Part shown: positions 392 to 47,232 of the stretch, piece by piece | Position numbering within the stretch: position 1 is the stretch's first letter | Layout of the letters: every line of letters starts with the position of its first letter | Made by a program: the position numbers and the translations under genes | Notes under the pieces: generated by a model | Databases searched by the model: none | The model's input: the letters and a program-made list of their open reading frames with translations, nothing else | Told to the model about the DNA's origin: nothing | Source of the DNA: Planctomycetota bacterium | Lineage (GTDB): Bacteria > Planctomycetota > MHYJ01 > JACQXL01 | Length of the DNA stretch: 64,000 bases | NCBI GenBank assembly: GCA_043801445.1 | Contig: JAZDMB010000032.1 | Span: forward strand, 29,438 to 93,437 | Direction: 5' to 3'

Positions 392-1105
392 TCATATTAT
401 CAACCCATCTCTCATTTGAAATTTCTTCTTGGCAAATGTTGCGATGTCCGGTTCGTGGGTAATCATAACAATCGTCAGCCCCTGCTCGTTCAGTTTCCGG
501 ACTATCTCCATTATTTCCACGCTTGACTTTGAATCCAGATTGCCGGTTGGTTCATCAGCCAGTAAGAATTTAGGCTGATTAACTAAGGCGCGGGCAATTG
601 CCACGCGCTGCTGCTGTCCGCCTGATAACTGGCTGGAATAATGCTTGGTCCGGTCGCCTAAACCCATTTGTTCCAGTATTTCCTTGGCCCGTTGATGTCT
701 TTCCTTGGATGTTAAAGAACTGCCGTAAAAAAGCGGCAATTCAACATTCTCTAATGCCGATGTCCGCGACAATAGATTAAAATTCTGGAATACGAACCCG
801 ATTTTCTTATTGCGTATTTTTGCCCGTTCATCACGGTTAAGTGTGGATATATCAACCCCTTCCATAAAATATTTACCGCTGGTCGGCCGGTCAAGACAAC
901 CAATAATATTCATCAAAGTAGTCTTACCCGAACCTGAAGCACCCATAATAGCGATAAAATCACCTTCGTTAATAATTAGCGAAACACCTCTCAAAGCAGG
1001 AATATCCACTTCGCCAAGTTGATATGTTTTTATAATATTTTCAAGTGAAATAAAAGACTGCATATACTCACTATAAATAAAATTAGTGTCCGCCTCTAAC
1101 ACCAC
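392..1105 (-). CDS. ABC transporter ATP-binding protein, MacB/LolD type
   Basis: Walker A GASGSGKTT, ABC signature LSGGQQQRVAIARAL, Walker B LLADEPTGNLD. The true start is probably the internal Met near 1063 (MQSFISLENIIKTY), just after the adaptor gene stop. Confidence 0.9.
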   Translation of the reverse strand: MVLEADTNFIYSEYMQSFISLENIIKTYQLGEVDIPALRGVSLIINEGDFIAIMGASGSGKTTLMNIIGCLDRPTSGKYFMEGVDISTLNRDERAKIRNKKIGFVFQNFNLLSRTSALENVELPLFYGSSLTSKERHQRAKEILEQMGLGDRTKHYSSQLSGGQQQRVAIARALVNQPKFLLADEPTGNLDSKSSVEIMEIVRKLNEQGLTIVMITHEPDIATFAKKKFQMRDGLII

Positions 1106-2429: not shown

Positions 2430-2432
2430 AAC

Positions 2433-3809
2433 CTATTTACCTCCTATTGTTTTCTTAATCAATGCCACAGCCGTCTGGTAATCAAACGCAGCCTGAATAT
2501 GGCTGACCCGTGAATTCATTAAAGCCACCTGTGCATCTGTTAATTCTATAGACGACGCCTTGCCTATTTTATAACGTTCGTTAACCAGATTCAGATTCTC
2601 CTCGGCCTGCTGAACCGTCAATTGGGCAAGAGTTAAACGTTCTCCTGCTGATTCTAACTGCGCCACGGCACGGGTAAGATCCAAATAGATTCGTTGCTCC
2701 AGCTCAGCCCGAACGGCTCGAGTTGTCCTCAGATTAGCCACAGCCTTATCTATCTGATTAGTCTTCTGGAACCCGCTGAATATATTCCATCCGAGTGCGC
2801 TGCCTAAAGACCAATTCCAAACCAGCGGGAATTTACTGCCGCTCCAGCCATAACTGCCGTTAAGGGATAACGAAGGATACAAGTCGGCAATAGCCTGGTC
2901 CACCGCAGCTGAAGCACCGCGTTCCTGGGCAAGTTTGGCAACTAATTCCGGCTGGTTTTTCCGGGCAATCTTAATAAGTTTTTTAAAACTATGATTCTTA
3001 AATTCTTCCGGTGGCGGCTCCTGAACGATATAACCGGGGTCTTCAGCCAGACCCAGAGTATTATTAAGAACAGCCCGGGCTGTAGTCAAGGCGTTACGCG
3101 CATTAATCAGGTCAATCCGGGCGGTACCCAAATCAACCTTAGCCTTAGTAATGTCATATTTAATACGACGTCCCACATCGAACAAATTCTGGGTCTGCTC
3201 TAAATGAACCTGAAACTGATGCACCGTCTCTTCAGCCACCCGAACCAATGACTTTTGCTTGATTAGGTCATAGTAAGCCTGACGGGTATTATAAACGATA
3301 TTGTTCTCGGTTGATTTGAGCAGCGCTTCCGTGCTGAGTTTACTTTCGTAAGATTGCCTGATGGAGGCCGGTGTTTTACCGAAATCGTAGATTAGCTGGT
3401 CTAAAGAAACGCTGGCTGAATATGAATCGTTTGTCTTATTACTGGCTGAAGCGACTGTACTATTGCTGGTCCCTTGTCTATAACCGGCACTGGCGTTGAC
3501 AGACGGCAAATAGCCGGCAATAGAATCCTTGAATTGCTTGTCTGCTGACACCAGGCTTTGCCGCGCCTGAACGATTGAAGGATGATAAACCAATGCTATT
3601 TCCAGGGCACGGTTCAGGGAAAGCGGTACATCTTTACTCAGTCCAACCTCAGCCGCGGTAACCGTCCGTTCACCCGCTGAAATCTTTGAGATATCCTGCG
3701 CCTCGCGGGCTGAATGAACGGAAGAACAACCGGAAACTAAAAGGTAAAAAATAACAGAAAAGCAACTGATAATCGTCAGTTTTAGGTTCATCTTGTTTTT
3801 ACAGCTCAT
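2433..3809 (-). CDS. TolC-like outer membrane efflux protein (OEP family)
   Basis: 458 aa with a lipoprotein-type signal (LVSGCSS) and two OEP repeats of coiled-coil/beta-barrel character. It is the first gene of the OMP-adaptor-ATPase-permease operon. The likely start is the internal Met MNLKLTII. Confidence 0.85.
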   Translation of the reverse strand: MSCKNKMNLKLTIISCFSVIFYLLVSGCSSVHSAREAQDISKISAGERTVTAAEVGLSKDVPLSLNRALEIALVYHPSIVQARQSLVSADKQFKDSIAGYLPSVNASAGYRQGTSNSTVASASNKTNDSYSASVSLDQLIYDFGKTPASIRQSYESKLSTEALLKSTENNIVYNTRQAYYDLIKQKSLVRVAEETVHQFQVHLEQTQNLFDVGRRIKYDITKAKVDLGTARIDLINARNALTTARAVLNNTLGLAEDPGYIVQEPPPEEFKNHSFKKLIKIARKNQPELVAKLAQERGASAAVDQAIADLYPSLSLNGSYGWSGSKFPLVWNWSLGSALGWNIFSGFQKTNQIDKAVANLRTTRAVRAELEQRIYLDLTRAVAQLESAGERLTLAQLTVQQAEENLNLVNERYKIGKASSIELTDAQVALMNSRVSHIQAAFDYQTAVALIKKTIGGK

Positions 3810-3814
3810 TATAT

Positions 3815-3930
3815 AACCACAGATTATTTATCCCATTACTGCAAGAAAACTTCGTAACTTCTGCCACGAAGGCACCAAGACACTAAGAATTCTTTGTGTC
3901 TTTGTGGCTAAATTTTACTTGTGCACGTAG
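3815..3930. repeat. Mosaic repeat: CCACAGATTATTTATCCCAT motif, AAGAAAACTTCGTAAC motif and a CACAAAG-family palindrome
   Basis: Each sub-motif recurs elsewhere in the window (17968; 8647 and 47211; 7298, 7817 and 12290). Confidence 0.75.
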
Positions 3931-4174
3931 GGTATACCTTCCTATTTATTAATTATTATATCCAGCATCTCTAACAAGGTCAAGATAAAACAAACTGATT
4001 CACTTCTTGCCCCCTGATAGTAATTCATTTATTATATTAAACCCATCCATTATAAAAAAGTTACGGTTAATATTATACTACACAGCGACTACCGGGAGTG
4101 AAATATAGATTTCATCTTGCCCCGTCCCGATGGACATCGGGACGGGCTGCGAAGCTAATAAAACTTGCTACTGC

Positions 4175-4203
4175 TTGACAGTAATTAATTTATATAGTAT
4201 TAT
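4175..4203 (+). promoter_or_regulatory. Sigma70-like promoter (TTGACA-N17-TATTAT) upstream of the metalloprotease gene
   Basis: Perfect -35 with 17-nt spacer and an AT-rich -10. A MITE-like element lies between it and the ORF. Confidence 0.45.
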
Positions 4204-4269
4204 TTCGTATCCGTAAAATAGGACACGGATTGAAGTTTATCCAGCTGAACCGCAAGACAGATAAATTGT

Positions 4270-4333
4270 TTATAAGGAATCCAGGAAACCAAGATGAAAT
4301 TAATTTTCCTGCTCTCTTAGTCTCCTTATAGAA
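4270..4333. mobile_element. MITE-like element copy 1 (TIR TTATAAGGAATCC / GTCTCCTTATAGAA)
   Basis: Terminal inverted repeats and conserved core AATTAAT. Two further copies at 42907 and 48828. Confidence 0.6.
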
Positions 4334-4405
4334 ATTATCCGCGTTTATCTGTATCCCATTATTAAATTTAATATGACGGGCTCAGAATAATATTACGATT
4401 AACTG

Positions 4406-7330
4406 ATGATGCGTTATTATTTTTATATCTTAATTATCTTGGTTGTTTTGGGCCAAGCAGGTTCTCTTTTTGCCGTTCCGGCGTGTCCCACCCCGTTTAC
4501 CGGCAAACAGCCGGACGGAAAAGAATTTAAAATACACCTCAAAGGTGATGAATGGACAAACTGGACAGAAACAGAGGATGGCTATCCTATAATTATTAAC
4601 AAAAACACGAGGTTCTGGGAATACGGAAAGATTGGGGTATCAAAAAAGCTGTCTCCAACCGGCCAAATCGTTGGAAAAGACGCGCCGGTCGGGATAAACA
4701 AAATATCGGCAAAAGATTTACCTGCCCGACTGGATATCCGGTCAGGCGGGCCCGGAAAAGGTTTCAGGACGCCTCGCCCGAACGCCGGAGGCGGGCAGGC
4801 TGGCGCTTCTTCTCCGACTTCTGAATCACCTCAATCCGCTCCGCTGAATATTATTGGCACACGCAAACTCCTGGTGATTTTAGTCGGTTTTGCTGATAAA
4901 AGTTTAACTACTACTGAAACAAGTTGGGTTGACAGGATTTTTGGAGCAACAAACAGCGCAAAGAAATACTATGATGAAGTTTCCTACAATCAATTTAACC
5001 TTGCTCCGGCTGAAGAAACATATGGCACAATAAATAACGGTATCGTTGTGGTAACTTTGACATCCAATCATCCCAATACCGGAGAGGACACAGACACCCG
5101 AAATCAGCAACTTACCAAAGATGCGATTATAGCGGCTGACCCTTATGTCAATTTTGCGTCCTTTGATAGTAATAGCGATGGAACAATTACAACAAATGAA
5201 CTGAATGTTATGATTATTGCCGCAGGTTATGAAACGGCTTATTCTACTTCATCCACGCCTTCAGTGTGGGCGCATAAATGGGCTATTGACGACATTACCG
5301 CTCCTATAGTGGATGGAAAAACCGTAGGTGCTTATCCGGGTGGTTATACTCAATTCGGTGAATTACATGGCACATCAGTTACTAACCATCAGGCAACCAT
5401 CGGGGTTATTATCCATGAATTTGCCCATGACTGCGGCAACGTCACTACTTACTTAGGATTACCTGACTTCTATGACACTGACAGTACCTCATACGGTATT
5501 GGATACTGGGATTCTATGGCGTCTGGTATGTGGCTACCTACCACAGGAAGTTATCAGGGCGACACGCCTTCTCATTTCAGCGCATGGTGTAAATGGTATT
5601 CAGGATGGGTTACACCAACCCGGATTACTGTTTCTACAAATGGTGTTTCTTTCCCGCAAGTTGAAACAGCCACCGGAGCAGACCACGGAATTAAACAGAT
5701 TTTGAGTAATCCAAACGGACCGGAAATTGGCGGCACCGGTGAATATTTCCTGATTGAAAACAGGCAGAAAACCGGTTATGATGCTGGCCTCCCAGCTGCG
5801 GGCATTCTGATATGGCATATTGATGAAACACAAAATGATAATGATACAGAGACGCGAAAACTTGTAGATTTAGAGGAAGCGGATGGTCTAACCCAGCTTG
5901 ATAATAAAATTAGTAAAGGAGACGCAGGCGACCCTTATCCGGCAACAACTACTAACAGAACATTCAATTATACTTCTAATCCAAATAGCAGACTTTATAG
6001 CGGCTCGGATAGTAATATGAGCGTTACAAATATCAGTGATTCCGGCGCAACAATGACAGCAGATATTAACAATAGCAATACAGACCAACCACCGGTACTG
6101 ACGTCGCCTGGGAATAAGAGTGTTGGCGAAAATGCCTTATTAACTTTTACGTTATCAGCCAGTGACCCGGATGGTGATACAATCAGTTATTCTATGGCAG
6201 GCACGCCGACCGGCTCAACCCTGAATTCCACGACGGGCGCATTTTCATGGACGCCAAACTACTTCCAATCAGGCGTTTATGCAATGACCTTTACCGCCAC
6301 GGCAAATAGCTTATCAGACTCCGAACCGATAAATATCACGGTAAATAATGTCGACCGGCCTCCGGCATTAACCTCGCCGGGTAATAAAAGCATCGATGAA
6401 AATCAGGTGTTAACCTTTACGCTATCCGCGACCGACCCGGATGGCGATACAATCAGTTATTCTATGGCAGGCACACCGACCGGCTCAACCCTCAATTCCT
6501 TGACAGGCGTATTTTCCTGGACGCCGAATTACTTCCAATCAGGCGTTTATCCGGTGACCTTTACCGCCACGGCAAATAGTTTATCAGACTCCAAATCGAT
6601 AACCATCACGGTAAATAATATCGACCGGTCTCCGGCATTAACCTCGCCGGGCAATAAAAGTATCGATGAAAATCAGGTGTTGACCTTTACGCTATCCGCA
6701 ACTGACCCGGATGGCGATACAATCAGTTATTCTATGGCAGGCACGCCGACCGGAACGACCTTGAATTCTGCTACCGGTATCTTCAACTGGACGCCGGATT
6801 ATACCCAGATAGGCATTTACAGTATTACTTTCACGGCAACATCCAATGTTTTATCTGATTCCAAAACCATAACCGTAACAGTATTACTGATACCGCCGGC
6901 TAACCTCACAGCTACCGCTATTTCATCTTATGCGATAAGACTCAACTGGACAGATACATCAATTAACGAAACCGGATTTAAGATAGAACGCAGTCCTGAC
7001 AATATTACCTTCACTCAAATTTCTATGGTCGGCTCCAATATAACCTCTACTCTTGATACAAATCTTTCTGCTGAGACTGATTATTATTACCGTATAAAAG
7101 CTTATAATAGTACGGGTAATTCCGACTATTCTAATGTAGTTTCGGCGACGACATTTGCTCTGATTTCAGCCGGTTCCAGCGGTAAAGGCAGCCACAAGGC
7201 ATTTTCTAAATGCGGTTGTTTGGGAATAGAACCATTATTAATTCTATTTCTTATCAGCCTGTTGGGAATCCGTAAATCGTTCAAGAAAAATAGTAGCCAC
7301 GAAGACACAAAGGCACTAAGAAGAAAGTAA
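4406..7330 (+). CDS. Secreted multidomain zinc metalloprotease (M6/InhA-like HEFAHDCG...LPDFYD) with three cadherin-like/He_PIG repeats, one FN3 domain and a C-terminal hydrophobic anchor
   Basis: Signal peptide MMRYYFYILIILVVLGQAGSLFA. HExxH motif VIIHEFAHDCGNVTTYLGLPDFYD resembles the immune-inhibitor-A M6 family. Three ~94-aa repeats contain DPDGDTISYSMAGTPTGSTLNS. FN3-like segment PPANLTATAISSYAIRLNWTD...YYYRIKAYNSTGNSDYS. C-terminal GIEPLLILFLISLLGIRKSFKK. The last ~12 codons (HEDTKALRRK) are encoded by the dispersed CACAAAG repeat. Confidence 0.85.
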   Translation: MMRYYFYILIILVVLGQAGSLFAVPACPTPFTGKQPDGKEFKIHLKGDEWTNWTETEDGYPIIINKNTRFWEYGKIGVSKKLSPTGQIVGKDAPVGINKISAKDLPARLDIRSGGPGKGFRTPRPNAGGGQAGASSPTSESPQSAPLNIIGTRKLLVILVGFADKSLTTTETSWVDRIFGATNSAKKYYDEVSYNQFNLAPAEETYGTINNGIVVVTLTSNHPNTGEDTDTRNQQLTKDAIIAADPYVNFASFDSNSDGTITTNELNVMIIAAGYETAYSTSSTPSVWAHKWAIDDITAPIVDGKTVGAYPGGYTQFGELHGTSVTNHQATIGVIIHEFAHDCGNVTTYLGLPDFYDTDSTSYGIGYWDSMASGMWLPTTGSYQGDTPSHFSAWCKWYSGWVTPTRITVSTNGVSFPQVETATGADHGIKQILSNPNGPEIGGTGEYFLIENRQKTGYDAGLPAAGILIWHIDETQNDNDTETRKLVDLEEADGLTQLDNKISKGDAGDPYPATTTNRTFNYTSNPNSRLYSGSDSNMSVTNISDSGATMTADINNSNTDQPPVLTSPGNKSVGENALLTFTLSASDPDGDTISYSMAGTPTGSTLNSTTGAFSWTPNYFQSGVYAMTFTATANSLSDSEPINITVNNVDRPPALTSPGNKSIDENQVLTFTLSATDPDGDTISYSMAGTPTGSTLNSLTGVFSWTPNYFQSGVYPVTFTATANSLSDSKSITITVNNIDRSPALTSPGNKSIDENQVLTFTLSATDPDGDTISYSMAGTPTGTTLNSATGIFNWTPDYTQIGIYSITFTATSNVLSDSKTITVTVLLIPPANLTATAISSYAIRLNWTDTSINETGFKIERSPDNITFTQISMVGSNITSTLDTNLSAETDYYYRIKAYNSTGNSDYSNVVSATTFALISAGSSGKGSHKAFSKCGCLGIEPLLILFLISLLGIRKSFKKNSSHEDTKALRRK
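6085..6900 (+). repeat. Three intragenic near-identical ~280-bp tandem repeats inside the metalloprotease gene
   Basis: DNA and protein identity are visibly >85% between copies. Confidence 0.9.
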
Positions 7331-7423: not shown

Positions 7424-7816
7424 ATGAACTTTGAACCATTATCAGATAGAGAAGAAGAAATAGGAAGCAAAGTTATTGATTCCGCTTATATCATCCATAA
7501 AACTCTTGGCGCCGGTTTATTGGAAAAGGTTTATGAAGTATGCTTTTGCCATGAACTTTCTAAGAGGGGGCTATCATATAAAAGACAAGTAGATATACCG
7601 ATAGTTTACGATGGAATAACTTTTGATGAAGGTTTAAGATTAGACGTACTTATTGAAAATTTAGTAATCTGTGAACTTAAAGCGGTAGATGAAACAAATC
7701 CGGTATGGGAAGCGCAACTATTAAGTCATTTGAAACTTATGAAAAAACGATTGGGTTTCTTGATAAACTTTAATGTTCCCGTTATCAAAGACGGTATTAA
7801 ACGAATAATATTATAG
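7424..7816 (+). CDS. GxxExxY family protein (PD-(D/E)XK nuclease-like fold)
   Basis: 130 aa; GAGLLEKVYEVCF motif and DVLIENLVICELKAV core are typical of the GxxExxY family. The same CACAAAG-type repeat flanks it on both sides. Confidence 0.8.
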   Translation: MNFEPLSDREEEIGSKVIDSAYIIHKTLGAGLLEKVYEVCFCHELSKRGLSYKRQVDIPIVYDGITFDEGLRLDVLIENLVICELKAVDETNPVWEAQLLSHLKLMKKRLGFLINFNVPVIKDGIKRIIL

Positions 7817-7883
7817 ATGTATTTCTTTGTGTCTTGGTGCCTTTGTGGCTAAATTTTATCTTTACAAAAGAAAGGTAAAGAGT

Positions 7884-8438
7884 ATGAATACAAATATGTC
7901 GCATCCGATAACCAATAAAGAAGAACGGCTCTTTAAGGGTTATGTCAAGGAAGTGCCGGATTTCCCTAAGAAAGGAATCCTATTCAGGGATATAACACCA
8001 TTGCTGAGCGACTCGAAAATATTCAAGAAGGTAATCCATAAAATGTGCCAACCCGTAGATGCCAAGTTGGTTGACCGGGTCGCCGGGATAGAATCAAGAG
8101 GATTTATATTGGGCGGCGCAATGGCATTAAATTGGGATGTCGGATTTGTCCCGATAAGAAAAGCAGGCAAACTCCCTTGCGCTACCTACAAAGAAAGTTA
8201 CGGTTTAGAGTACGGGAAAGCCGTAATTGAAATCCATCGGGACGCATTTACTCCCAAACAGAATGTTATATTAGTGGATGATGTCCTAGCTACAGGCGGG
8301 ACAGCCAGAGCGGCTTGTAAGCTGATTGAGAAATGCGGAGCCAAAGTCGTAGCCTGTATCTTTTTAATCGAATTGACGGGCTTGAAAGGAATCCGAAAAC
8401 TGGACAAATATAACGTATTCAGTCTGTTGAAATATTAA
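7884..8438 (+). CDS. apt: Adenine phosphoribosyltransferase
   Basis: PRPP-binding motif VILVDDVLATGGTA and GIESRGFILGGAMA. The ORF track starts at 7827 inside a repeat element; the Met at 7884 (MNTNMSHPITNKEE) is the plausible start. Confidence 0.9.
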   Translation: MNTNMSHPITNKEERLFKGYVKEVPDFPKKGILFRDITPLLSDSKIFKKVIHKMCQPVDAKLVDRVAGIESRGFILGGAMALNWDVGFVPIRKAGKLPCATYKESYGLEYGKAVIEIHRDAFTPKQNVILVDDVLATGGTARAACKLIEKCGAKVVACIFLIELTGLKGIRKLDKYNVFSLLKY

Positions 8439-8454
8439 GTTGAATCCGCCAAAC

Positions 8455-8579
8455 TTGCCCGACTGGCAGGCGGGTCTGCGGTAAACCGTATTGTAAACTT
8501 TCACCACAAAGGCACAAAGAACACAAAGTATTTTTCTCTCTGCGTCTCTGCGGTGAACCTACCCGACTCGTCAGGCAGG
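8455..8579. repeat. Intergenic mosaic: two GC-rich palindromic elements (8455-8477, 8558-8579) flanking a CACAAAG/CTCTGCG heptad hairpin (8496-8556)
   Basis: CTTGCCCGACTGGCAGGCGGG; CACCACAAAGGCACAAAGAACACAAAG...CTCTGCGTCTCTGCGGTG; CCTACCCGACTCGTCAGGCAGG. Confidence 0.8.
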
Positions 8580-8761
8580 TTGTCCCACGGGGTAGTTACA
8601 CTCATTTTATTCAGATAGGACTTGACTTTTATAAAAGTTATTGGTATTTATAAGAAAACTTCGTAACCGCTGATTTGGCGGATTAGGCTGATATTATTAA
8701 TCTTAATCCGTTTAATCTGCATAATCCGCGGTTTCTTTTATACTTTTCTATACTCTAAAAT

Positions 8762-9253
8762 ATGTTTTACGAAGATGTCTTCAGGGCATTGAACAAGGCA
8801 AGAGTTAAATATTTAGTGGCAGGCGGTTTCGGTGTTGTATTACACGGTTTCCCCCGCTTCACCGCAGATTTAGACCTGATTATCCATCTGGAAGAAAAGA
8901 ATATTGATAGATTCTTTGAGACGGTTGCGAAATTAGGCTACCGTCCCCGGCTGCCTGTTACCAAAGAAGACTTTAAGAATAAACATAAAAGAACAGAATG
9001 GATAAAAACCAGGAATATAACGGTCTTTTCGTTCTTCCATTCCAAGAAACCGATGGAGACCATAGATTTGTTCGTGAAAGAGCCAATCAAATTTGAGGTA
9101 ATGGCAAAAGACGCCGAGAAGATTAAGGTAAAAGGTATTACTATCCCAACACTATCTATAAAACACCTGATACGATTGAAGAAGAAAGCCGGCAGGCCGG
9201 AAGACCTTATTGATATAGCAAACCTGAAAGTAATACAAAAGGGTAATCAGTAA
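8762..9253 (+). CDS. Minimal nucleotidyltransferase-fold protein (pol-beta superfamily)
   Basis: GGFGVVLHGFPRFTADLDLII matches the GS-x(9-13)-DxD NTase signature. 163 aa. First gene of the accessory island. Confidence 0.65.
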   Translation: MFYEDVFRALNKARVKYLVAGGFGVVLHGFPRFTADLDLIIHLEEKNIDRFFETVAKLGYRPRLPVTKEDFKNKHKRTEWIKTRNITVFSFFHSKKPMETIDLFVKEPIKFEVMAKDAEKIKVKGITIPTLSIKHLIRLKKKAGRPEDLIDIANLKVIQKGNQ

Positions 9254-9531
9254 TGGCAAAAAAATGTCTCCGCCAAAGGCGGATCTGCCTCTGGCACAGG
9301 GTTGCAGGAAAAAGACTGCATCCGACTAATAAAATCAAACCCAACGAACATCTAAAGGAATACCTCAAAACCACGCCATTACAACGGCTTGAATGGCTGG
9401 AGCAAGCCAACAAATTCGTCTATGAAAACCACCTGGCAAAGATAGGAACCAAACCCGCCCGAACCTGCCCGAATGACCATTCGGTCGGGCGGGCGACCAT
9501 AGGGTCGGGCAGGCACGAAACCAAGAATTAA
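9253..9531 (+). CDS. Small basic hypothetical protein, start overlapping the NTase stop; the 3' end is encoded by GC-rich palindromic repeats
   Basis: ATGGCAAAAAAATG start overlaps the NTase stop. The C-terminal ~30 codons coincide with stacked CCTGCCCGA/GTCGGGCAGG palindromes, so the real extent is uncertain. Confidence 0.35.
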   Translation: MAKKCLRQRRICLWHRVAGKRLHPTNKIKPNEHLKEYLKTTPLQRLEWLEQANKFVYENHLAKIGTKPARTCPNDHSVGRATIGSGRHETKN

Positions 9532-9857
9532 CCACAAGATTAGCACCAGATTTTCACGAGATTTCTCTGGTGCCAATCTGCCTGCCTACTTGGTATAATC
9601 TGTGGTTTATTTCTTTCTTGTATTCATGTCCTCTTTATAAAATTATCCGTGTTCATCTGCGTTAATCTGTGTCCTATATTTCTCTGCGTCCTTTGCGCCT
9701 CTGCGGTTAAATTATACTACCTACTTCATACTTTATACTACATACTTCTCTATCCCCTCAGCACGACCACCTGTCCCGTTAGAAGCAACCAAATTGCTGT
9801 AGAGACGAATGAAATTATATCACATATTGAAAGCGAGGCTTCTAACGGGCTGAGAAG

Positions 9858-10805
9858 CTATCCCCTCAGGACTACTACCTCAAATGTATTATCCGCTATA
9901 GCCGGTTGGTTCAGCAGGATTGAAATCCCTGTCCCTTGCGGTAGCCCCGGTAACAGGAATAGTTGTCTAATCAACTGGTCTTGATTCACAGGTATAGAGT
10001 AACCCAAAATCACACCGCCATTCAAATCAGGGTCACCCAAAGGCGGATATAGTCCGCCTACCTGTAATGCCGGAATCGTGATACTGATAACCTTGTAGGA
10101 TAATTTGGTTTTCGTCACCGCGCCGTTCTGGATTTTTTCCGTTGACACACTGTCTACTGCCAACTGACTACTGCCTACTGCGCCAGCCCCAATTTCATCT
10201 GTAGCCACCGGAGGCACCAATGGTCTTGATACACCGCCACCACCCGGAGCAATCCACTCAAATCTTTCCTGTGCCTGATTGTAAGAAGGGACTTCGCCAT
10301 TAGCCGGAGCATCGATTGCCCTGATATGTCTTGGCTCAACCGACCCGTTAATAATCTCCAGATAGCCCACCGAATTAGAAGCCAGTTTTACTTTAGTCAC
10401 TGAGTTAGTGGCAAGTTTATCGGCAGTAACAGCGCTTGCCTTTATCTTATCCGCAGTAATCGCGTTATTCTGGATTTTAGTTTCGGAAACCGCATTATCG
10501 GCAATTTCCACAGTTGCAACGGGCGGGGTCAAAGGTCTGCCCAGAACCCCATCACTGATTTTGTCTTTAGTGATAGTTCCGTCTGCGATTTTAATGCCCG
10601 TGATTGCACCGTCAATAATCTTGCTTGTAGATATTGAACGGTCAGCAATCTTCTCGCCCGTAACCTGCTTATCAGCAATCTTATCAGTCTTAACTGCCCC
10701 ATCCTTGATTTTGTTAGTCGTAACCGAATTATCAGCCAGTTTGGATTCGGTTACCGCATAAGATGCGATGTTTGGGGTTTTGACTTCATTTGGTTTTAAT
10801 GACAT
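9858..10805 (-). CDS. Repeat protein with about 20 copies of an 11-residue K-I-x-D-G-A-V-T-type repeat (beta-helix-like; tail-fibre-like or adhesin-like)
   Basis: Visible periodicity NKIKDGAVKTDKIADKQVTGEKIADRSISTSKIIDGAITGIKIADGTITKDKISDGV... followed by a non-repetitive C-terminal domain. Confidence 0.6.
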   Translation of the reverse strand: MSLKPNEVKTPNIASYAVTESKLADNSVTTNKIKDGAVKTDKIADKQVTGEKIADRSISTSKIIDGAITGIKIADGTITKDKISDGVLGRPLTPPVATVEIADNAVSETKIQNNAITADKIKASAVTADKLATNSVTKVKLASNSVGYLEIINGSVEPRHIRAIDAPANGEVPSYNQAQERFEWIAPGGGGVSRPLVPPVATDEIGAGAVGSSQLAVDSVSTEKIQNGAVTKTKLSYKVISITIPALQVGGLYPPLGDPDLNGGVILGYSIPVNQDQLIRQLFLLPGLPQGTGISILLNQPAIADNTFEVVVLRG

Positions 10806-11008
10806 ATAAATCTCCTTTTAGAGCCAGTTAGAATCCCGCTTTAGCGGGATGAGTTACAGGCTCTTATCCCGATGAGCATAGCGACATCGGGGTCTTTGCC
10901 ACAAAGCACACAAAGGACACAAAGTTAAGTGTTTTATTATGCTTCGTAGTTTATTTACTACAGCGTAGGGGCGGTTTTACCCGCCCCCACAATCTGTATA
11001 ATCTGTGG

Positions 11009-11821
11009 CTACACCGTTGACACCTGGATTTCCAGGAACATCTTACTATCCACCAGAATGTAGTCGCAATGACTATCTCCGCCTGTAGTGAATGGCTCAT
11101 ATGTTACGGAATCCTGCAAGCCCTTGATTATCGCATTAATGGCGTCGTTCTCTTTGGCAAAAGCCGCCGCAAGCATTTTGCTATCAAGGATAATCACGCC
11201 GCTTTTGGTCAGTTGCTGTGCCAGAGCCACCTTTAGGGCAGTTCTGGTATCAACCGTTGTGACTTGCGCCACATTGACCGGACCGCCTGATATGACTATA
11301 TCAGCTCCGCGGATATGACCCTCCGCAGTCGGCTCATCAGTCAGCCAGAGCGGAGCAATGCCGGACACCGATTTACCGATGGTTTTTTCCCCGGTAAAGG
11401 GCAATGACCGTTTTGCTACCCTGCTGACATACAGGTCAACCGCATTATCAACGCTTTCCTTGTAGCGTTTGCCGATTTCGCCGTCAATCTCCTCAAATGC
11501 CCGAAGCAACTTGGCTTCGTATTTATTGAAGGTGTTTAGGACGTTCTCGGCCTGGGTATTGACGATGTCATTCCGGGACTTACCGCTTCGTGACCTGAAG
11601 GTGGCAGACGGGAACGGTGCATAACCTTCACTGGATGGTCCGCCCAGTTTAAGTTTGTAAGCCATTTCGTCCGGTATGATAAGTTTCCGTTTCATATCAA
11701 TTACCTCTGCCTTGTTCTTCAGACCGTCACGCCAGCCGTTGCTCATATGTTCCGGGATTGTGGTTAAATCCAGCGGCACGAACAACCTCACTTTACTTAC
11801 TATTGTTGACATTTTTCTCAC
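11009..11821 (-). CDS. Hypothetical protein (270 aa; size fits an HK97-fold capsid or encapsulin-like shell protein, but no supporting motif was found)
   Basis: Clean ORF with repeat elements on both sides. No recognisable catalytic motif. Confidence 0.5.
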   Translation of the reverse strand: MRKMSTIVSKVRLFVPLDLTTIPEHMSNGWRDGLKNKAEVIDMKRKLIIPDEMAYKLKLGGPSSEGYAPFPSATFRSRSGKSRNDIVNTQAENVLNTFNKYEAKLLRAFEEIDGEIGKRYKESVDNAVDLYVSRVAKRSLPFTGEKTIGKSVSGIAPLWLTDEPTAEGHIRGADIVISGGPVNVAQVTTVDTRTALKVALAQQLTKSGVIILDSKMLAAAFAKENDAINAIIKGLQDSVTYEPFTTGGDSHCDYILVDSKMFLEIQVSTV

Positions 11822-11858
11822 CCCCTTTTCTTGTCTGTTAAAGTTTTACAATGGTTAA

Positions 11859-11990
11859 CCCGCCTGACTGGCGCCAGTCGGGCAGGTGCGCGCATCGTTT
11901 GGTTTGTTTCACCACAAAGAACACAAAGGTCACAAAGAATTTCTCTGTGTGCTCTGTGTCTCTGTGGCAAAGATTACTTGCTGAGCCAGT
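11859..11990. repeat. GC-rich palindromic element (CCCGCCTGACtggcgccaGTCGGGCAGG) plus heptad hairpin (CACAAAG x3 / CTCTGTG x3)
   Basis: Read directly from sequence. Confidence 0.8.
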
Positions 11991-12375
11991 GTCTGAGTTT
12001 CCTGATTCCAATTGCATAGAGTTCCAAGACCCTGTTTGTGCTGATACCCACAGCCAGTGCGGTGTAATTAACCGAGCGCCTGTAAGAGGCAATCTCCATA
12101 ACTACTTCCGCCTCTATTTGGCTCACGATTCCGCCTTCTACTGCTTCTAAAAGAGTGGACGAACCCATATAGTTCCGAAGTTCCTTGTTTGTCTCTGGAA
12201 CAGCGGGCGGAATGGCTGGCTCCGCTTCCGGGGCGGGCATCACTGCACCTGCCCTAATGATTTCTTCTAACATGGTTTTTCTCCATCTCTGCCACTGAGA
12301 CACAGAGTCCACAGAGGACTTAGTGTCTTTGTGTCTTGGTGGCTGTTTAAGGTGTTCATATCTATTGTCCTCCAA
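11974..12375 (-). CDS. Small sigma-70 region-4-like HTH protein
   Basis: C-terminal IEAEVVMEIASYRRSVNYTALAVGISTNRVLELYAIGIRKLRHWL resembles sigma region 4 / LuxR-type HTH. The N-terminal ~35 codons of the track ORF are encoded by a CACAGAG/CTTTGTG repeat, so the true start is probably the Met near 12270 (MLEEIIRAG). Confidence 0.55.
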   Translation of the reverse strand: MEDNRYEHLKQPPRHKDTKSSVDSVSQWQRWRKTMLEEIIRAGAVMPAPEAEPAIPPAVPETNKELRNYMGSSTLLEAVEGGIVSQIEAEVVMEIASYRRSVNYTALAVGISTNRVLELYAIGIRKLRHWLSK

Positions 12376-12544
12376 AATACATAAGGTGAATTGTCGCAGG
12401 TTGGCTGATATTATTTTTGCATGATTTGGCTAATTTGCCTTAACCCCAGTATTGGCAAGCAATTTGAGCCAAAGAATTTTTGAGGAATTTTTGGAATGCG
12501 CTGATTTTAGCCGAATGATTTGGAACTAGTTCCCTCTTTTGGGC

Positions 12545-12875
12545 TCATAAGGTGCGTCCTTCAGCGATATACCCTATGTCCTTATGAATAAAACCGTATG
12601 TCCTTTTGGAATAAACCCAATGTCCCTTTGTTATAAACCCTACGTCCTTATGAAATAAACGATATGTCCTTCTGTTTCAAACGGTATGTCCTTTTGGAAT
12701 AAATCGTATGCCCTTTTATTTCAAATCCTATGTCCTTTTGGAACAAATCGTATGTCCTTTTGTTCTAAAAAGTGTGTCCCTTTAGAATAAATCCAACGTC
12801 CTTATATAACAAACGATATGTCCTTTTATAATAAACGGTATGTCCTCTTGGGAAACACCCTATCCAGCGTGGGAA
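12545..12875. repeat. Direct tandem array of ~13 x 22-bp units (consensus TATGTCCTTTTGGAATAAATCG), iteron-like
   Basis: Units abut with no spacers. The TATGTCC core is conserved and the 3' half is variable. Confidence 0.9.
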
Positions 12876-12982
12876 TAATACCTACTACCTCTTAGATAAC
12901 ATGGGGTATCCCCTGCCAGTAGGGGGGTGGGGGTAAACCAAGGGTAATTGGGTGATTAGGATATTAGGAAATCAGTGGGGAA

Positions 12983-13654
12983 TTAGGGAATTGGGAAGGG
13001 TTCGGGTTCTTCGTCGTCCGGGATATTATCTATGTCGTGCTTCCATTCGTCCGGGTTATAGGCCTTTAACTGGAACTTGGTCTTGTAGGTGTAGGCTTCG
13101 GAATAGGGATGGAACGGGTCTTCGGCAAGCCCGAAGAACGTCTTGAGTTTCTGACGCAGTCCGTAGATTGACTTCTTGGTGCGTGAAATCTCTTTGGCTG
13201 AGTATTTATCGGTATGAATGATACTGGATTTGCCTATCATTTCCGTGGATTCCGAGTCGTCATCATCACCATCTGCGTTCCAGCGGTGCTTGATTCTGCC
13301 GCCCTTGCGCCAAGGGAGTTCGCCGTCGTGCTCTGCCAGCCGTTGCAGTAGTTTCCAGTGCCGGTCAGGGCTCAGCCGGCTCTTGCGGAGTTTATCGTAG
13401 CAATCTAATTCTACGAAATTGACCTTACGGGGCTTGGGCATAACGTTGCGGATTGAAATCAGGGCGTATGTCTCGCTCAGTTTAATAACAATATCTTGCC
13501 AGTTAGTTCCGGTCGGAAGTGGGAATTTGGGCGTTCTGATAGCGGAGAGAACCGGCGCCTGTGCCTTGAACCCGGAAAGGAACGAGATAATCTGGTCTAA
13601 TTTACGGTTGATAGACTGTAAACATTCATTATCAATATTGTCTTTGGAGGACAT
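12983..13654 (-). CDS. Hypothetical acidic protein (223 aa, DGDDDDSES patch)
   Basis: Starts 8 bp after the stop of the DUF4238-like gene, so likely co-transcribed. No recognisable domain. Followed by the 22-bp tandem array. Confidence 0.6.
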   Translation of the reverse strand: MSSKDNIDNECLQSINRKLDQIISFLSGFKAQAPVLSAIRTPKFPLPTGTNWQDIVIKLSETYALISIRNVMPKPRKVNFVELDCYDKLRKSRLSPDRHWKLLQRLAEHDGELPWRKGGRIKHRWNADGDDDDSESTEMIGKSSIIHTDKYSAKEISRTKKSIYGLRQKLKTFFGLAEDPFHPYSEAYTYKTKFQLKAYNPDEWKHDIDNIPDDEEPEPFPIP

Positions 13655-13662
13655 AATTATTT

Positions 13663-14628
13663 CTATTTAGAATTAGGTGTCGTATCAACGAAATTCTCTG
13701 ATATATTAAAATAAGGTTTTATATTATCTTTAATGAACTCAGAATCAGTAGAAGAATAGATGCATTCATTAGCCCACATTAATGTTCTATTATTAAATAT
13801 TTTAACATTTTCAGGGGGTAATGGAATGACACTTGGTTTTTTATACCAAGTTAACATCAAACAAATACTGGGACATAACGGGATAGTTATTTCAATATCT
13901 TTTTGAGCAATCCCATAACCGTACGGACTATTCTGGAGTTTCGGATTAAATAAAACAAAAGGATTATCAGAGGTTATAAAGGGATGCTCGTCAAGCGTTG
14001 CTAGATAGGAAAAATTCATACGAGCAATCTTATTTACCAAACTCATATCTTGGCCTAAAGTAACCATGGCTCTAAGGTGGGGAATATTGTTAACAGAAAT
14101 ATTATATTTTTTACTTAGTGCAAATTGTCTCAGATTTTCCACCTCACCTGGTTTATTGCCGACATCTATTTTAGCTTTCTTTATCGTATTCTCAAAAAGT
14201 GTTTTATCTGAGGCAACCATTAATGTTGCCTTCTTAATTACATCCTTTATAAACACATTAATATTTTCTCTCATATCAGGCGTTCTTAGAAACAGATACA
14301 AAAGAAAATACGCCAGGTCGGTTTTTTCCTGATTAGATAGGCGGACAGGATTTCTGAGGATTTTCTTTATGACATTGAAAGCTCCGCTTTCTATTCGCGC
14401 AAGAATTGTTTCTAAATCTCTATTTGGCCTGTCTTCTTTATCTTTTACGGTATAGAACTCTTTCTGAACGGCAACATTTATTAGATTCGCCCGAAAAGGT
14501 TTTCTCTGGCGGTGAAAAACCCAGATTGCGTCAGTAATTCTCTTGTTTTTATCGGGAATACAAAAATTCTTAAGATAGAATTGCGGAATAGTATGCTGTC
14601 TTTTAGTGTTATTATTTGATGTTCCCAT
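13663..14628 (-). CDS. DUF4238-like protein
   Basis: N-terminal KRQHTIPQFYLKNF resembles the conserved H-x-V/I-P-Q-F-Y-L motif that opens DUF4238 proteins. 321 aa. Confidence 0.6.
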   Translation of the reverse strand: MGTSNNNTKRQHTIPQFYLKNFCIPDKNKRITDAIWVFHRQRKPFRANLINVAVQKEFYTVKDKEDRPNRDLETILARIESGAFNVIKKILRNPVRLSNQEKTDLAYFLLYLFLRTPDMRENINVFIKDVIKKATLMVASDKTLFENTIKKAKIDVGNKPGEVENLRQFALSKKYNISVNNIPHLRAMVTLGQDMSLVNKIARMNFSYLATLDEHPFITSDNPFVLFNPKLQNSPYGYGIAQKDIEITIPLCPSICLMLTWYKKPSVIPLPPENVKIFNNRTLMWANECIYSSTDSEFIKDNIKPYFNISENFVDTTPNSK

Positions 14629-14710
14629 ACTTATTTTTGTTCGGAATTATGTATTGCGTTATCAGAATTATTCAGTTATTACCACATTAATATTTTGATT
14701 GCTCTCGCCA

Positions 14711-15079
14711 TTATTCATCTTTCCGTATAAATGAATTGATTTCATCAGAAACTGTATCCAAAATAATAAGTAAGATTACTACTAATCCCATTAGTGATAA
14801 CCCAATAGGATAGATTATATTCCTTATCGGTTTTATCTCTTTCTCTGGGAATATACTAATAATCAAAGATAACACAACTAAACTTGCTAAAGCAAAAATG
14901 TCCCCCTTAAGGAACCAACCTATTAAACGGATAGAATCGCTTTCGTAATGAATTGTCTTACATATTGGACAGGTCTGATATCTATGAGTAACTGATACAT
15001 GTTTATCGTCAGTCCCTTCCCATTTATGCTTACATCGCTTACATTCTAATAATCTTAGTGTTTCCATAAAACCTCCCAT
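14711..15079 (-). CDS. Small membrane protein with N-terminal CxxC...CxxC zinc ribbon and two TM helices
   Basis: CKRCKHKW...CPICKTIH, then two hydrophobic helices (IFALASLVVLSLIISIF and IGLSLMGLVVILLIIL). Lies 82 bp upstream of, and co-directional with, the DUF4238-like gene. Confidence 0.55.
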   Translation of the reverse strand: MGGFMETLRLLECKRCKHKWEGTDDKHVSVTHRYQTCPICKTIHYESDSIRLIGWFLKGDIFALASLVVLSLIISIFPEKEIKPIRNIIYPIGLSLMGLVVILLIILDTVSDEINSFIRKDE

Positions 15080-15133
15080 CTAATAAAAAAGTTTCTCGCG
15101 GGACAGTGGCGCTAAATCCTCCGCTTAATCCGT

Positions 15134-16177
15134 TTAATCCTGTGTAGTCGCAACGGAGTCCCGATTATTTCGGGGTTGTTTTATTCCTTCAAGTTCGCCG
15201 AGTTTATCGCGCGCTTCGGCATAGTCGGGTTGAATCCGAATCGCCTCTTTGAAGCATTCCATCGCTTTCTGGTTATCGCCCCGAAGTTCTTCGGGACTCC
15301 GCTTCGCTTCGCCGGTTTGTTCATAGGCCACGCCCAGATTAAAGTGCGCTATGGCAAGGTCAGGTTCAATATAAATCGCCTCGTTATAGCATTCTATCGC
15401 TTTTTGATGCTCGCCTATTTTCCCATACATAAAACCGAGATTATTATGCGCCTCGGCATGGGCAGGTTTAAGCCGAATCGTTTTTTCAAAGCATTCTATC
15501 GCTTTCTGATAATCGCCGGCTTCCCCATATATACGGCCAAGATTACAGAGCATCTCGTCATCGTTGGGGTCAAGCCGAGTCGCCTCTTTGAGGCATTCTA
15601 TGGCTTTCTGGTTATCGCCTGTTTTCATATAGGCAAAACCAAGGCTACAGTGTGCCAGGGCATAGTCAGGTTTAAGCCGAATTGCCTCTTTATAGCATTC
15701 CATCTCTTTCTGATAATCGCCTGTTTTCCAATACGCCACGCCTAGATTATAGTGCGCTATGGCATTGTCAGGTTTAAGCCGAATCGCCTCTTTATAGCAT
15801 TCTATCGCTTTTTGATTATCACCCCCGCCTGAACAGCCGGGTTGGGCAGGTGTTTTATCATACAGAAGACCAAGACCATAGTATGCATCGGCATTGTCAG
15901 GTTTAATCCGAATCGCCTCTTTGAGGCATTCTATCGCTTTCGGATTATCACCTATTTTCCCATAGATACGACCAAGGTTACAGTGTGTATCGGCCAGGTC
16001 AGGTTTAATCCGAATCGCCTCCTTAAAGCATTCTATCGCTTTCTGATAATCACCTGTTTTCGCATACAGAACACCAAGACTACAGTGTGCATCGGCATAG
16101 TTAGGTTTAAGCCGGATTGTCTTCTTAAGGGATTCTATAGATGCTTCTATAAGTACATTTTTCATAACGGCCTCCAA
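15134..16177 (-). CDS. TPR repeat protein with about 9 near-perfect 34-aa repeats
   Basis: Repeated QKAIECxKEAIRxKPDxAxAHxNLGxxYxKxGDY. C-terminal PRNNRDSVATTQD is encoded by a TCCCGATTATTTCGGGA palindrome. Confidence 0.85.
   Translation of the reverse strand: MEAVMKNVLIEASIESLKKTIRLKPNYADAHCSLGVLYAKTGDYQKAIECFKEAIRIKPDLADTHCNLGRIYGKIGDNPKAIECLKEAIRIKPDNADAYYGLGLLYDKTPAQPGCSGGGDNQKAIECYKEAIRLKPDNAIAHYNLGVAYWKTGDYQKEMECYKEAIRLKPDYALAHCSLGFAYMKTGDNQKAIECLKEATRLDPNDDEMLCNLGRIYGEAGDYQKAIECFEKTIRLKPAHAEAHNNLGFMYGKIGEHQKAIECYNEAIYIEPDLAIAHFNLGVAYEQTGEAKRSPEELRGDNQKAMECFKEAIRIQPDYAEARDKLGELEGIKQPRNNRDSVATTQD
15230..16140 (-). repeat. Intragenic 102-bp tandem repeats (TPR units)
   Basis: Near-identical 34-codon units repeated ~9 times. 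Confidence 0.85.
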
Positions 16178-42859: not shown

Positions 42860-42906
42860 AAACCGGAGCTACTGCCTCCCGTAGAGACAAATAACACGGA
42901 GTATTT

Positions 42907-42973
42907 TATAAGGAATCCAGGAATTCAGGAAAATTAATCTTGGTTTCATGGTCTCCTTATAGAAATTATCTGC
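42907..42973. mobile_element. MITE-like element copy 2
   Basis: TATAAGGAATCCAGGAATTCAGGAAAATTAATCTTGGTTTCATGGTCTCCTTATAGAA. Confidence 0.6.
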
Positions 42974-43056
42974 CTGCCTACTTGGTGTAATCTGTGGCTA
43001 ATCTACGTTTCTTCTCTTTAACCTACCTTCTACATACTATATACTACATACTAATA

Positions 43057-45062: not shown

Positions 45063-45139
45063 CTGGAGGGTACGATATCCCCCCTGGGTAGGTAGGGTAA
45101 TATAGGGGGGAGGTAGGGGGATGGGTAATTTTCTTATTT

Positions 45140-45462: not shown

Positions 45463-45534
45463 TGGGATACCCTACCCCCCACCACCCCTATATACTATAT
45501 ACTATGTTCTATATACTGAATTTCAATTTTCCAC

Positions 45535-47206: not shown

Positions 47207-47232
47207 TATAGTAAGAAAACTTCGTAACTTCC

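Follow-up and report, generated by a model that had tools for sequence, protein, structure and literature searches.

We analysed a stretch of 64,000 nucleotides (nt) from a Planctomycetota metagenome-assembled genome (MAG; GCA_043801445.1, contig JAZDMB010000032.1, positions 29,438-93,437), here called the window, and within it the segment at positions 8440-15133. Eight open reading frames (ORFs) and a tandem array lie in this segment, between the phosphoribosyltransferase (PRTase) gene apt (7884-8438), which has a Pfam Pribosyltran match and a real start that is probably 7884, and a TPR gene (15134-16177). Only the first two ORFs, a nucleotidyltransferase (NTase) gene and a small ORF, are on the plus strand and the other six are on the minus strand, which agrees with an earlier note made from the DNA letters; the tandem array that it described is also there, with 14 exact 22-bp units. 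That note took the segment for an accessory island of ORFans, a mosaic of cassettes assembled or targeted by dispersed repeats, and held that it was not a canonical prophage. The last point was confirmed: no integrase, terminase, portal or capsid family was found among 9 ORFs with Pfam and PHROGs, the fibre repeat being the one phage-type match, there is no tRNA in the 64 kb, and no att-type repeat pair marks the borders. The window also has no Rfam match, and scans for promoter and terminator consensus sequences gave no more matches than in shuffled sequence.

A multi-copy module of array, putative regulator, 267-aa protein and fibre

Positions 9858-13654 form the backbone of the segment and represent one copy of a module that is repeated within genomes and confined to groundwater Planctomycetota. 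Read along the minus strand, it consists of a gene for a 223-amino-acid (aa) protein, a C-rich box, the array of fourteen 22-bp units, a spacer of about 270 bp, a gene for a small helix-turn-helix (HTH) protein, a gene for a 267-aa protein and a gene for a phage-fibre-type protein. A scan with one genome per species returned 33 loci, every one of them in a MAG of groundwater Planctomycetota; single genomes have several divergent copies, and one MAG has as many as about 12. In 24 of 35 loci, the next gene downstream of the 267-family member is a fibre-repeat gene. For comparison, loci and contigs were fetched from related Planctomycetota MAGs and from IMG/VR and labelled L001-L048. The closest relative is L005, whose 267 protein is 88% identical; there the order is TPR, NOV_C, Mrr_cat, PIN, a 226-aa gene, a 22-bp array of 10.5 units, HTH, 267 and fibre. 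Its TPR protein is 73% identical to and collinear with that of the window, its ortholog, so that the backbone is conserved in place and the cargo alone differs. Relatives at 78-79% identity (L001, L011) keep the order of 223-like gene, array, HTH, 267 and fibre among other housekeeping neighbours, and paralogs from different MAGs can share a chromosomal neighbourhood, as L021 and L023 do. An accessory region would not have kept its content and order among relatives, as has happened for the 3.8 kb in the centre, from the 223-aa gene to the fibre gene.

The 267-aa protein most likely starts at the ATG at 11812, behind a strong Shine-Dalgarno sequence (GGGGGTGA), which shortens the 270-aa ORF to 267 aa, and it is identical to the NCBI MAG protein V1871_05325 (hypothetical, Planctomycetota). 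A word-indexed search found 21 close homologs, all named ones belonging to Planctomycetota or Brocadiia; a profile search of 1.84 billion representatives gave 240 clusters at E<=1e-3, of which the named ones are from Planctomycetota. Members share an invariant GGxSHCD[YW] motif near the C-terminus. With 240 clusters and several copies per genome for this family, and with homologs for the 223-aa, HTH and fibre genes as well, these genes are not ORFans. The AlphaFold2 (AF2) model, built from a 20-sequence alignment, is confident (predicted local distance difference test, pLDDT, 89; predicted template modelling score, pTM, 0.72) and mainly helical, with an N-terminal strand and a C-terminal hairpin. 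Foldseek searches with this model gave no significant match, the best E being 0.47 in PDB and 0.31 in BFVD, and no capsid family matched the protein; given the confident model, the capsid or encapsulin identity suggested earlier from its size was rejected. Against PDB sequences the profile gave only "Pizza" repeat-artefact matches and no passing stretch, and a Walker-A reading of the string GEKTIGKS was discarded because its lysine is not conserved in the family. No tblastn match to the protein was found in 50,697 phage and 72,556 plasmid records. The family does occur on 1 of 2.9 million IMG/VR contigs, a low-quality one (L048, UViG 3300031898_000117), where a ThaI restriction endonuclease and an N6_N4 methylase lie beside a Trypsin_2 peptidase and the 267-family gene (647-5145).

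The 315-aa protein consists of about 20 decapeptide repeats, (V/I)T..KI.D.., and a C-terminal domain of about 80 aa. Its period is 10 residues (30 nt) and not 11 as reported earlier, and the families that it matches are those of phage fibres: phrog_892 tail fiber at 1.7e-32 and 18 further PHROG families. Matches by tblastn were found in 120 phage records, to genes for tail fiber, host specificity protein J and minor tail protein. The profile also matches chain orf16 of PDB 9EG4 at 1.5e-6, an entry that models the capsid of Legionella phage LME-1, with its major capsid protein and trimeric head-decoration fibre (PMC12407071). A match to PADLOC PD-Lambda-5_A at 2.5e-6 covers the generic repeat region only, and an exact look-up of the protein found no identical record. 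The fibre gene stands outside any virion or tail cluster, its neighbours being regulators, the 267-aa family and housekeeping or defence genes. Among five paralogs in the MAG JAZDFP01 (fibre genes at L005 6733-7620, L020 4026-4940, L022 10563-11564, L027 10961-11905 and L030 7481-8419), the last 240 nt, encoding the tip, are 84-93% identical; the first 300 nt of the same genes are mostly 52-65% identical (82% in one pair), and the adjacent 267 genes 53-60%. Between the window and its ortholog L005, the tip is only 56% identical though the 267 gene is 87% identical at the nucleotide level. Fibre tips evolve in concert within one genome and are exchanged among paralogs. A variant arrangement is found in a distant member, L044 (380-4221; the same as L045), where a tandem of three 267-family genes, for 264, 267 and 468 aa, precedes an Mtd_N-type fibre. 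Further along, L044/L045 encodes a PLD-type protein and many small ORFs and looks like a phage-like fragment.

The gene upstream of the 267 family varies from locus to locus. Sigma70_r4-type HTH proteins, a Peptidase_S24 (LexA-like) protein with a Sigma70_r2 protein, and a Trypsin_2 peptidase with a small Zn-finger protein were all found in this place, and Trypsin_2::267 fusions exist. In the window the most likely start of the HTH ORF is 12273, for a protein of 99 aa, and orthologs in L001, L005 and L011 start at MLEE; the 133-aa ORF that reaches 12375 is an extension read through a heptad repeat. This protein aligns at E 4e-14 with one from L035 (Sigma70_r4 0.003, below the cut-off), and in the family alignment it groups with one from L040 (Sigma70_r4_2 4.7e-8, above the cut-off). 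Among 131 neighbouring genes of the family, the commonest families were Peptidase_S24, AAA_21/ABC transporter and Trypsin_2, followed by HEAT and Arm repeats, NERD, N6_Mtase/Eco57I and SMC_N, the rest being single housekeeping genes; the top 25 families listed for these neighbours contain no mobile-element family.

At the other end of the module, the 223-aa protein is one of 11 such database proteins, the window's own included. Homologs lie upstream of the array in L005 (79%, 226 aa), L011 (52%) and L001 (46%); no family matched, and the AF2 model was unusable (pLDDT 40). In relatives without the DUF4238 and Zn-ribbon genes, the 223-aa gene still travels with the array module, and it belongs to the backbone and not to the cargo. 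The three-gene cassette described earlier is hence not a unit: its DUF4238 and Zn-ribbon genes have a G+C content (GC) of 0.33 versus 0.49 for the 223-aa gene, and the latter follows the array module. TPR genes were considered as a further part of the module and not accepted; the window contains several of them (sequence reading, Pfam).

The minus-strand array of the window extends from 12849 to 12542, with all units in exact 22-bp register. Arrays with a 22- or 44-bp period, many of them next to a box rich in C or G (e.g. CCCCCTACCCCCCACC), precede the module in L001, L005, L006, L009, L011, L023 and L030, and related boxes stand beside arrays in these and other loci. In many other loci arrays are found further upstream, and they precede some paralogous modules as well as orthologous ones. 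With equal amounts of sequence considered on either side, 20 arrays were upstream and 2 downstream of a 267-family gene (p=9e-5), and 9 of the 22 were within 1.5 kb upstream (p=9e-4), although both values are optimistic since orthologous loci are not independent.

A second site in the window (44878-45495) has two divergent 22-bp arrays that flank a central G-box, with an outer C-box; its units are TACCTCCTATGGTTATATGGGA in 8 copies and GTATGTTTCCCGGCTCAAAGGC in about 13 copies. Its neighbours are an HI0933-like flavoprotein gene on one side and, on the other, a low-GC gene for 376 aa without a Pfam family. The methyltransferase and flavoprotein genes beside it (41900-44352) have a high GC at third codon positions (GC3, 0.54) and atypical codon use, like the backbone genes at the first site. 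Composites of array and C/G-rich box occur about once per 20-30 kb in all fetched related loci L001-L042, each with its own unit (for example L022 5468-5853, L025 4555-4929, L029 4192-4588 and L030 4720-5171). They would seem to be a class of non-coding element found across the lineage; Rfam gave no match, and a literature search turned up nothing relevant. No Rep, Par or transposase genes accompany the arrays according to Pfam and PHROGs searches of the window, and no Rep family was found in the 223-aa or HTH proteins. An oriC-like reading was rejected, there being no DnaA-box cluster near either window array, and none of the contigs examined is circular.

Table. Features of the segment, with the second array site of the window (positions in the window).
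Feature	Positions	Strand	Details and evidence
Intergenic repeat cluster downstream of apt	8439-8761		palindromes 8453-8475 and 8562-8581; heptad runs 8503-8557; TAATCCGTTTAATC 8704-8717; RNA hairpin 8495-8565, z -3.65
Minimal nucleotidyltransferase, 163 aa	8762-9253	+	Pfam; weak PDB match; copy in L047
Small ORF, 92 aa	9253-9531	+	start overlaps NTase stop codon; core about 9337-9459 conserved
Intergenic repeat cluster	9532-9857		CTGCCTGCCTACTTGGTATAATCTGTGG, TAATCYG-type heptads, CTCTGCG runs, TATACTACATACT run
Phage-fibre-type protein, 315 aa	9858-10805	-	phrog_892, 1.7e-32
Intergenic, small hairpins and heptad run 10893-10925	10806-11008		heptad element at same position in L001 and L005
267-aa protein of lineage-restricted family	11009-11812	-	homologs, profile search, AF2 model
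Intergenic, palindrome 11858-11887 and long heptad hairpin 11908-11971	11813-11973		minus-strand fold -35.5 kcal/mol, z -6.3
Small sigma-70 region-4-type HTH protein, 99 aa	11974-12273	-	alignment with module-linked proteins
Heptad hairpin just upstream of HTH start	12285-12344	-	z -2.1; same place in L005
14 direct repeats of exactly 22 bp	12542-12849	-	gene-strand consensus AaAAGGACATAcggTTTattaC
C-rich box beside array	12905-12940	-	plus strand reads GGGGTATCCCCTGCCAGTAGGGGGGTGGGGGTAAACC; related boxes in other loci
223-aa protein	12983-13654	-	homologs upstream of arrays in relatives
DUF4238 protein, 321 aa, low-GC cargo, candidate anti-phage defence domain	13663-14628	-	Pfam, PADLOC
122-aa Zn-ribbon protein, low-GC cargo	14711-15079	-	weak DUF4379 and TIGR04104 matches
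Second exact copy of TAATCCGTTTAATC	15126-15139	+	overlaps TPR gene stop codon
Second box-plus-array site	44878-45495		array 2a 44878-45060; G-box 45095-45130; array 2b about 45160-45460; C-box 45466-45495

Cargo, NTase pair and dispersed repeats

Between the backbone and the TPR gene, positions 13663-15079 hold two genes whose composition sets them apart. The window has a mean GC of 0.41 (standard deviation 0.047); that of the DUF4238 gene is 0.335 and that of the Zn-ribbon gene 0.32. The 223-aa, HTH and 267 genes, in turn, have a GC of 0.49-0.50 and a GC3 of 0.53-0.61, and the fibre gene has 0.47 and 0.44, respectively. Composition does deviate from the rest of the window, as an island would have it, but in two opposite directions, low-GC cargo and high-GC backbone, which points to several origins and not to one island. 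The DUF4238 protein matches Pfam DUF4238 at 2.8e-40 over residues 10-295 and PADLOC DUF4238-Pers at 2.7e-16, and in 5.8 billion proteins none of its relatives exceeds 34% identity. Protection of E. coli against T7 has been shown for a DUF4238 protein of an E. coli P2 hotspot (10.1101/2021.01.21.427644). The 122-aa protein has an N-terminal CxxC...CxxC zinc ribbon and, by sequence reading, two hydrophobic helices. In L001 and L011 a different small gene is inserted beside the box, and L003 has a weak SIR2_2-like gene there; other defence-type genes adjoining the module are this SIR2_2-like gene, the ThaI restriction-modification pair, N6_Mtase/Eco57I and NERD. The site at 13663-15079 is most likely an anti-phage defence slot, in which the DUF4238 protein and the putative Zn-ribbon membrane protein would be foreign low-GC cargo and which in L005 holds other nuclease-type genes.

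The minimal NTase recognized earlier beside apt is real. Its Pfam matches (Aminoglyc_resit 1e-6, DUF2204 1.3e-4) are to NTases of the Pol-beta type, MNT/AbiEii/ANT(2'')-like, and weaker ones are to AbiEii (0.053), DUF6036 (0.0011) and PDB 8an4, an AbiEii toxin (E 0.007). The small 92-aa ORF behind it is conserved only in its core at about 9337-9459 (NEHLKEYLKTTPLQRLEWLEQANKFVYENHLAKIG), both ends running into repeat elements, and had no family match in Pfam, PHROGs, PADLOC or a further family search. An apt-based metagenome scan returned two short contigs only. One of them, L047, carries an NTase copy that is 92.6% identical at the nucleotide level, together with the small ORF, between a TPR lipoprotein gene and a 3' fragment of apt, flanked by the same repeat types as in the window; in the other, L046 (apt 88% nucleotide-identical), no NTase is present within 470 bp downstream of apt. 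The NTase and its small partner may be a movable cassette resembling a toxin-antitoxin pair. When presence and absence are compared across relatives, the accessory reading appears to hold for some parts, with cargo swapped in L005 and the NTase absent from L046 and rearranged in L047, and not for the backbone, which is conserved in place in L005. What stands of the ORFan mosaic is its heterogeneous composition and evolution, with some accessory parts; the single island and the true ORFans do not.

Every gene of the segment was said to be bracketed by repeats. Runs of the heptads CACAAAG, CTCTGTG and CTCTGCG, palindromes of the form CCCGAC...CAGGCGGG, TAATCYG heptads and TATACTACATACT runs occur in intergenic gaps across the whole 64 kb, and each element of the 9532-9857 cluster (CTGCCTGCCTACTTGGTATAATCTGTGG, TAATCYG-type heptads, CTCTGCG and the TATACTACATACT run) recurs at 42960-43056. 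By regular-expression definitions, heptad or palindrome elements are present in 4 of 7 island gaps and in 9 of 29 gaps elsewhere in the window (Fisher p=0.22), and they are not specific to the island. The gaps between the 223-aa and DUF4238 genes (8 bp), between the DUF4238 and Zn-ribbon genes (82 bp) and between the Zn-ribbon and TPR genes (54 bp) contain none, and the NTase gene and small ORF overlap, so that not every gene is bracketed. The repeats also flank apt, a methyltransferase gene, acpS and a ClpB/ClpA-type chaperone gene (the last named by sequence reading). Read in transcript sense, the heptad elements form long hairpins (-35.5 kcal/mol, z -6.3, at 11900-11980; z -5.3 at 47225-47310), and the same kinds of element stand at orthologous intergenic positions in other genomes, in the 267/fibre gap and upstream of the HTH gene. 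These heptad and palindromic repeats are hairpin-forming intergenic elements, REP-like (repetitive extragenic palindromic) or terminator-like, that persist at orthologous positions. Since they are window-wide, form RNA hairpins and keep the same intergenic positions in orthologous loci, they do not behave like builders of the region, and nothing indicates that they assembled or targeted its cassettes.

The 14-mer TAATCCGTTTAATC, which is present at both ends of the segment, was considered as a prophage border pair and rejected. It is found exactly at 8704 and 15126 and with one mismatch at 16192 and 60631 (minus strand), and four copies in the window versus 0.14 expected make it a dispersed motif and not a pair of island borders. 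The two terminal copies had been noticed before, each one position off (8703 and 15127).

Several observations concern the surroundings of the segment. Stop-free heptad repeats give spurious N-terminal extensions to ORFs, at apt (7827-7883) and at the HTH gene (12274-12375), and they also form the C-terminal tail, SSHEDTKALRRK, of a 974-aa secreted protein (4406-7330). This protein has a Peptidase_M6 catalytic domain, three He_PIG/Big_9 Ig-like repeats and an fn3 domain, the He_PIG/Big_9 repeats being encoded by a 270-bp tandem repeat that is 90% identical. Directly upstream of apt lies a gene of the PDDEXK_3 nuclease family (7424-7816; Pfam 2e-37; GC 0.33), of which a homolog is found near the module in L003 (12909-13271).

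Interpretation of the segment and its alternatives

Together, these data suggest, with slightly better than even confidence, that the segment is a composite of a conserved module, swapped cargo, an NTase cassette and dispersed repeats, and not one island. Based on its position, we speculate that the phased array, with one site per two helical turns, may form with its box a cis-acting platform for the module's own regulator. This regulator would drive the 267-fibre operon, and it would be the HTH protein here and a LexA-type S24, sigma-type or trypsin-type partner in paralogs. The fibre would act as a trimeric binding fibre, and the 267-aa protein, again judging from its place in the gene order, may be its dedicated partner, an anchoring or assembly platform. 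A fuller proposal, which we put forward tentatively and would not call probable, is that a chromosomal system not described before exists in Brocadiia-related groundwater Planctomycetota, with as many as about a dozen divergent copies in a genome. In each copy a 267-aa protein of new fold would be joined by a phage-derived fibre, with a tip that is uniform within the genome, and by its own regulator (sigma-region-4 HTH, LexA-type S24 or trypsin-type protease), the whole commonly headed by an array of a new kind, phased at 22 bp and often accompanied by a C/G-rich box; the unit in the window would have picked up defence cargo.

Several points weigh against this interpretation. The cis-acting platform and the partnership between 267-aa protein and fibre are both inferred from position, and the statistics on array position draw on orthologous loci. 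The period of the arrays is constant, but the unit sequence differs at every site, and a fixed strand rule for the C-box was rejected, the box having no fixed strand or order relative to the genes. No 267-family gene lies near the second array site of the window, and the arrays may be an independent genome-wide element found about once per 20-30 kb. The window's 99-aa HTH protein has no direct Pfam match. The backbone, with its atypical codon use and high GC3, may also be foreign. Finally, the comparison loci are fragmented MAG contigs, and that of L005 stops straight after the fibre gene, before the apt side.

The atypical codon use of the backbone would fit an explanation in which a cryptic mobile element, of plasmid or phage-satellite type, has integrated and extends from array to fibre, with the 22-bp repeats as replication iterons or as a packaging or partition site and the 223-aa or HTH protein as initiator or binding protein. 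Direct repeats of 22 bp in strict phase beside a gene are the classic iteron layout; the family is multi-copy, among different neighbours in different genomes; the arrays are polarised to one end of the unit; and several paralogs are on short contigs amid small DUF2188- or SNase-like genes. We nevertheless consider such an element unlikely. Rep, Par, integrase, transposase and terminase families are missing from the window and from the commonest families of the 131 neighbours, as are DnaA-box clusters and circular contigs from the material examined, and the 267-aa protein is absent from the plasmid and phage records searched and near-absent from IMG/VR. Moreover, paralogs keep their chromosomal neighbourhoods across MAGs (L021, L023), and arrays occur without 223-aa or HTH genes and without the module altogether. 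The earlier model, in which heptad and palindromic repeats are recombination or targeting sites that built an island cassette by cassette, could draw on the repeats in four or five island gaps, on the heptad elements that bound the cargo slot in L005 and on the repeats around the NTase cassette in L047. It appears very improbable given the lack of significant enrichment in the island gaps, the repeats at housekeeping genes, the three element-free junctions from the 223-aa gene to the TPR gene, and the persistence of elements at orthologous positions in genomes diverged to 78-88% protein identity. Their folding into transcript hairpins, with z down to -6.3, fits REP-like or terminator-like elements.

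Two further explanations concern what the 267-fibre pair does, and we hold either to be improbable. The 267-aa protein could be a lattice or shell former of a new, non-HK97 fold, decorated on its surface by the fibre, in a domesticated virus-like particle, nanocompartment or surface layer. The order 267-then-fibre mirrors that of LME-1, major capsid protein and then trimeric head-decoration fibre (an order inferred from consecutive protein accessions), whose capsid-model chain orf16 shares the decapeptide repeat; a protease upstream of, or fused to, 267-family genes resembles a prohead-protease-then-capsid layout, and in L044 three tandem family genes precede the fibre gene. However, Foldseek matched the confident AF2 model to no shell protein in PDB or BFVD, be it a capsid, an encapsulin or another, and genes for portal, terminase and scaffold are missing. 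In addition, orf16 may be the major capsid protein and not the decoration, and the homology extends no further than a generic fibrous repeat, which tail fibres have too. Alternatively, the pair could be an anti-phage or inter-bacterial conflict system in which the fibre serves as decoy, sensor or fibre-only bacteriocin, switched by LexA- or protease-type regulators. This would be in keeping with recurrent neighbours such as DUF4238, NOV_C/Mrr/PIN, SIR2_2-like, ThaI restriction-modification, N6_Mtase/Eco57I, NERD and a Schlafen-type helicase, with the S24 (LexA-like) regulators beside several paralogs, with fibre domains that are shuffled and diversifying, and with the PD-Lambda-5_A match, were it not that this match spans generic repeat only, that most neighbours are housekeeping genes, that neither protein has a toxin, nuclease or NTPase domain, and that up to about 12 copies per genome would be unusual for a defence system.

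On the composite reading that we favour, the ORFan island turns out to be mostly ordinary: a variable defence-type slot, a movable NTase cassette and genome-wide hairpin repeats. Of more interest are the new protein family, the concerted fibre tips and the recurrent 22-bp-phased non-coding element upstream of family genes. The family counts 240 representative clusters, has a confident predicted fold unmatched in solved or viral structures, and is paired with a phage-type fibre. If the three belong together, they would show an uncultivated Planctomycetota lineage domesticating phage fibres, and the 267-fibre complex and the array-binding proteins would become targets for experiment.

Comparison with known systems

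Iteron arrays are known from plasmid and phage replication origins, and the gamma origin of R6K carries 22-bp iterons. The window array resembles them in its direct repeats of about 22 bp, in its strict phase and in its place beside a gene for a small DNA-binding-type protein. It differs in having 10-16 units versus 4-7 and in lacking a Rep homolog and DnaA boxes, and no AT-rich unwinding element was identified; arrays of its kind recur at numerous places in the chromosome, where the unit is specific to the place and a C/G-rich box often stands alongside.

Tandem heptamers in intergenic regions are also known as the heptameric short tandemly repeated repetitive (STRR) sequences of cyanobacteria. 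Another comparison class for the dispersed repeats is that of REP and bacterial interspersed mosaic element (BIME) type extragenic palindromes (PMC3733652). Like both, the window repeats are short and intergenic, consist of palindromes or tandem heptamers, are scattered and give hairpins in transcripts; their sequences (CACAAAG/CTCTGTG, CCCGAC...GGCGGG, TAATCYG) are different, and no transposase of the REP-associated tyrosine transposase (RAYT) type was seen in the window.

The cargo slot is similar to defence islands and P2-P4 hotspots (10.1101/2021.01.21.427644) in that the nuclease- or defence-type genes at one place between conserved genes differ among close relatives, and in that its cargo is low in GC and without close homologs. 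Unlike in P2/P4 hotspots, the flanks are a TPR gene and the 223-aa gene and not prophage genes, and the same slot was seen in one comparison genome. The NTase pair shares with MNT-HEPN and AbiEii systems a Pol-beta-type NTase (163 aa) that is translationally coupled to a small downstream ORF, as well as variability among close relatives. It departs from them in a partner ORF without HEPN or AbiEi signature and in NTase family matches that are all weak.

The fibre protein can be aligned with phage fibres having an I.DGAVT..KI-type repeat (phrog_892, the tail fiber-like protein of Synechococcus phage S-TIP37 and LME-1 orf16) over 73-95% of its length at 24-37% identity, and like them it has a conserved N-terminus and an exchangeable C-terminal tip. 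In contrast to phage fibres, its gene is chromosomal, without other virion genes, and paired with the 267-aa family, which is absent from the searched phage records; tips are homogenised among the paralogs of one genome and do not vary by locus.

Domesticated phage structures under repressor or sigma-like control are exemplified by PBSX with Xre/Xpf and by the R/F pyocins with PrtR/PrtN. The module is set apart from these by having two structural-type genes only, without sheath, tube, baseplate or lysis genes, and by its many divergent copies. What it has in common with them is that its phage structural-type genes are chromosomal and lie beside LexA-type (S24) and sigma-type regulators.

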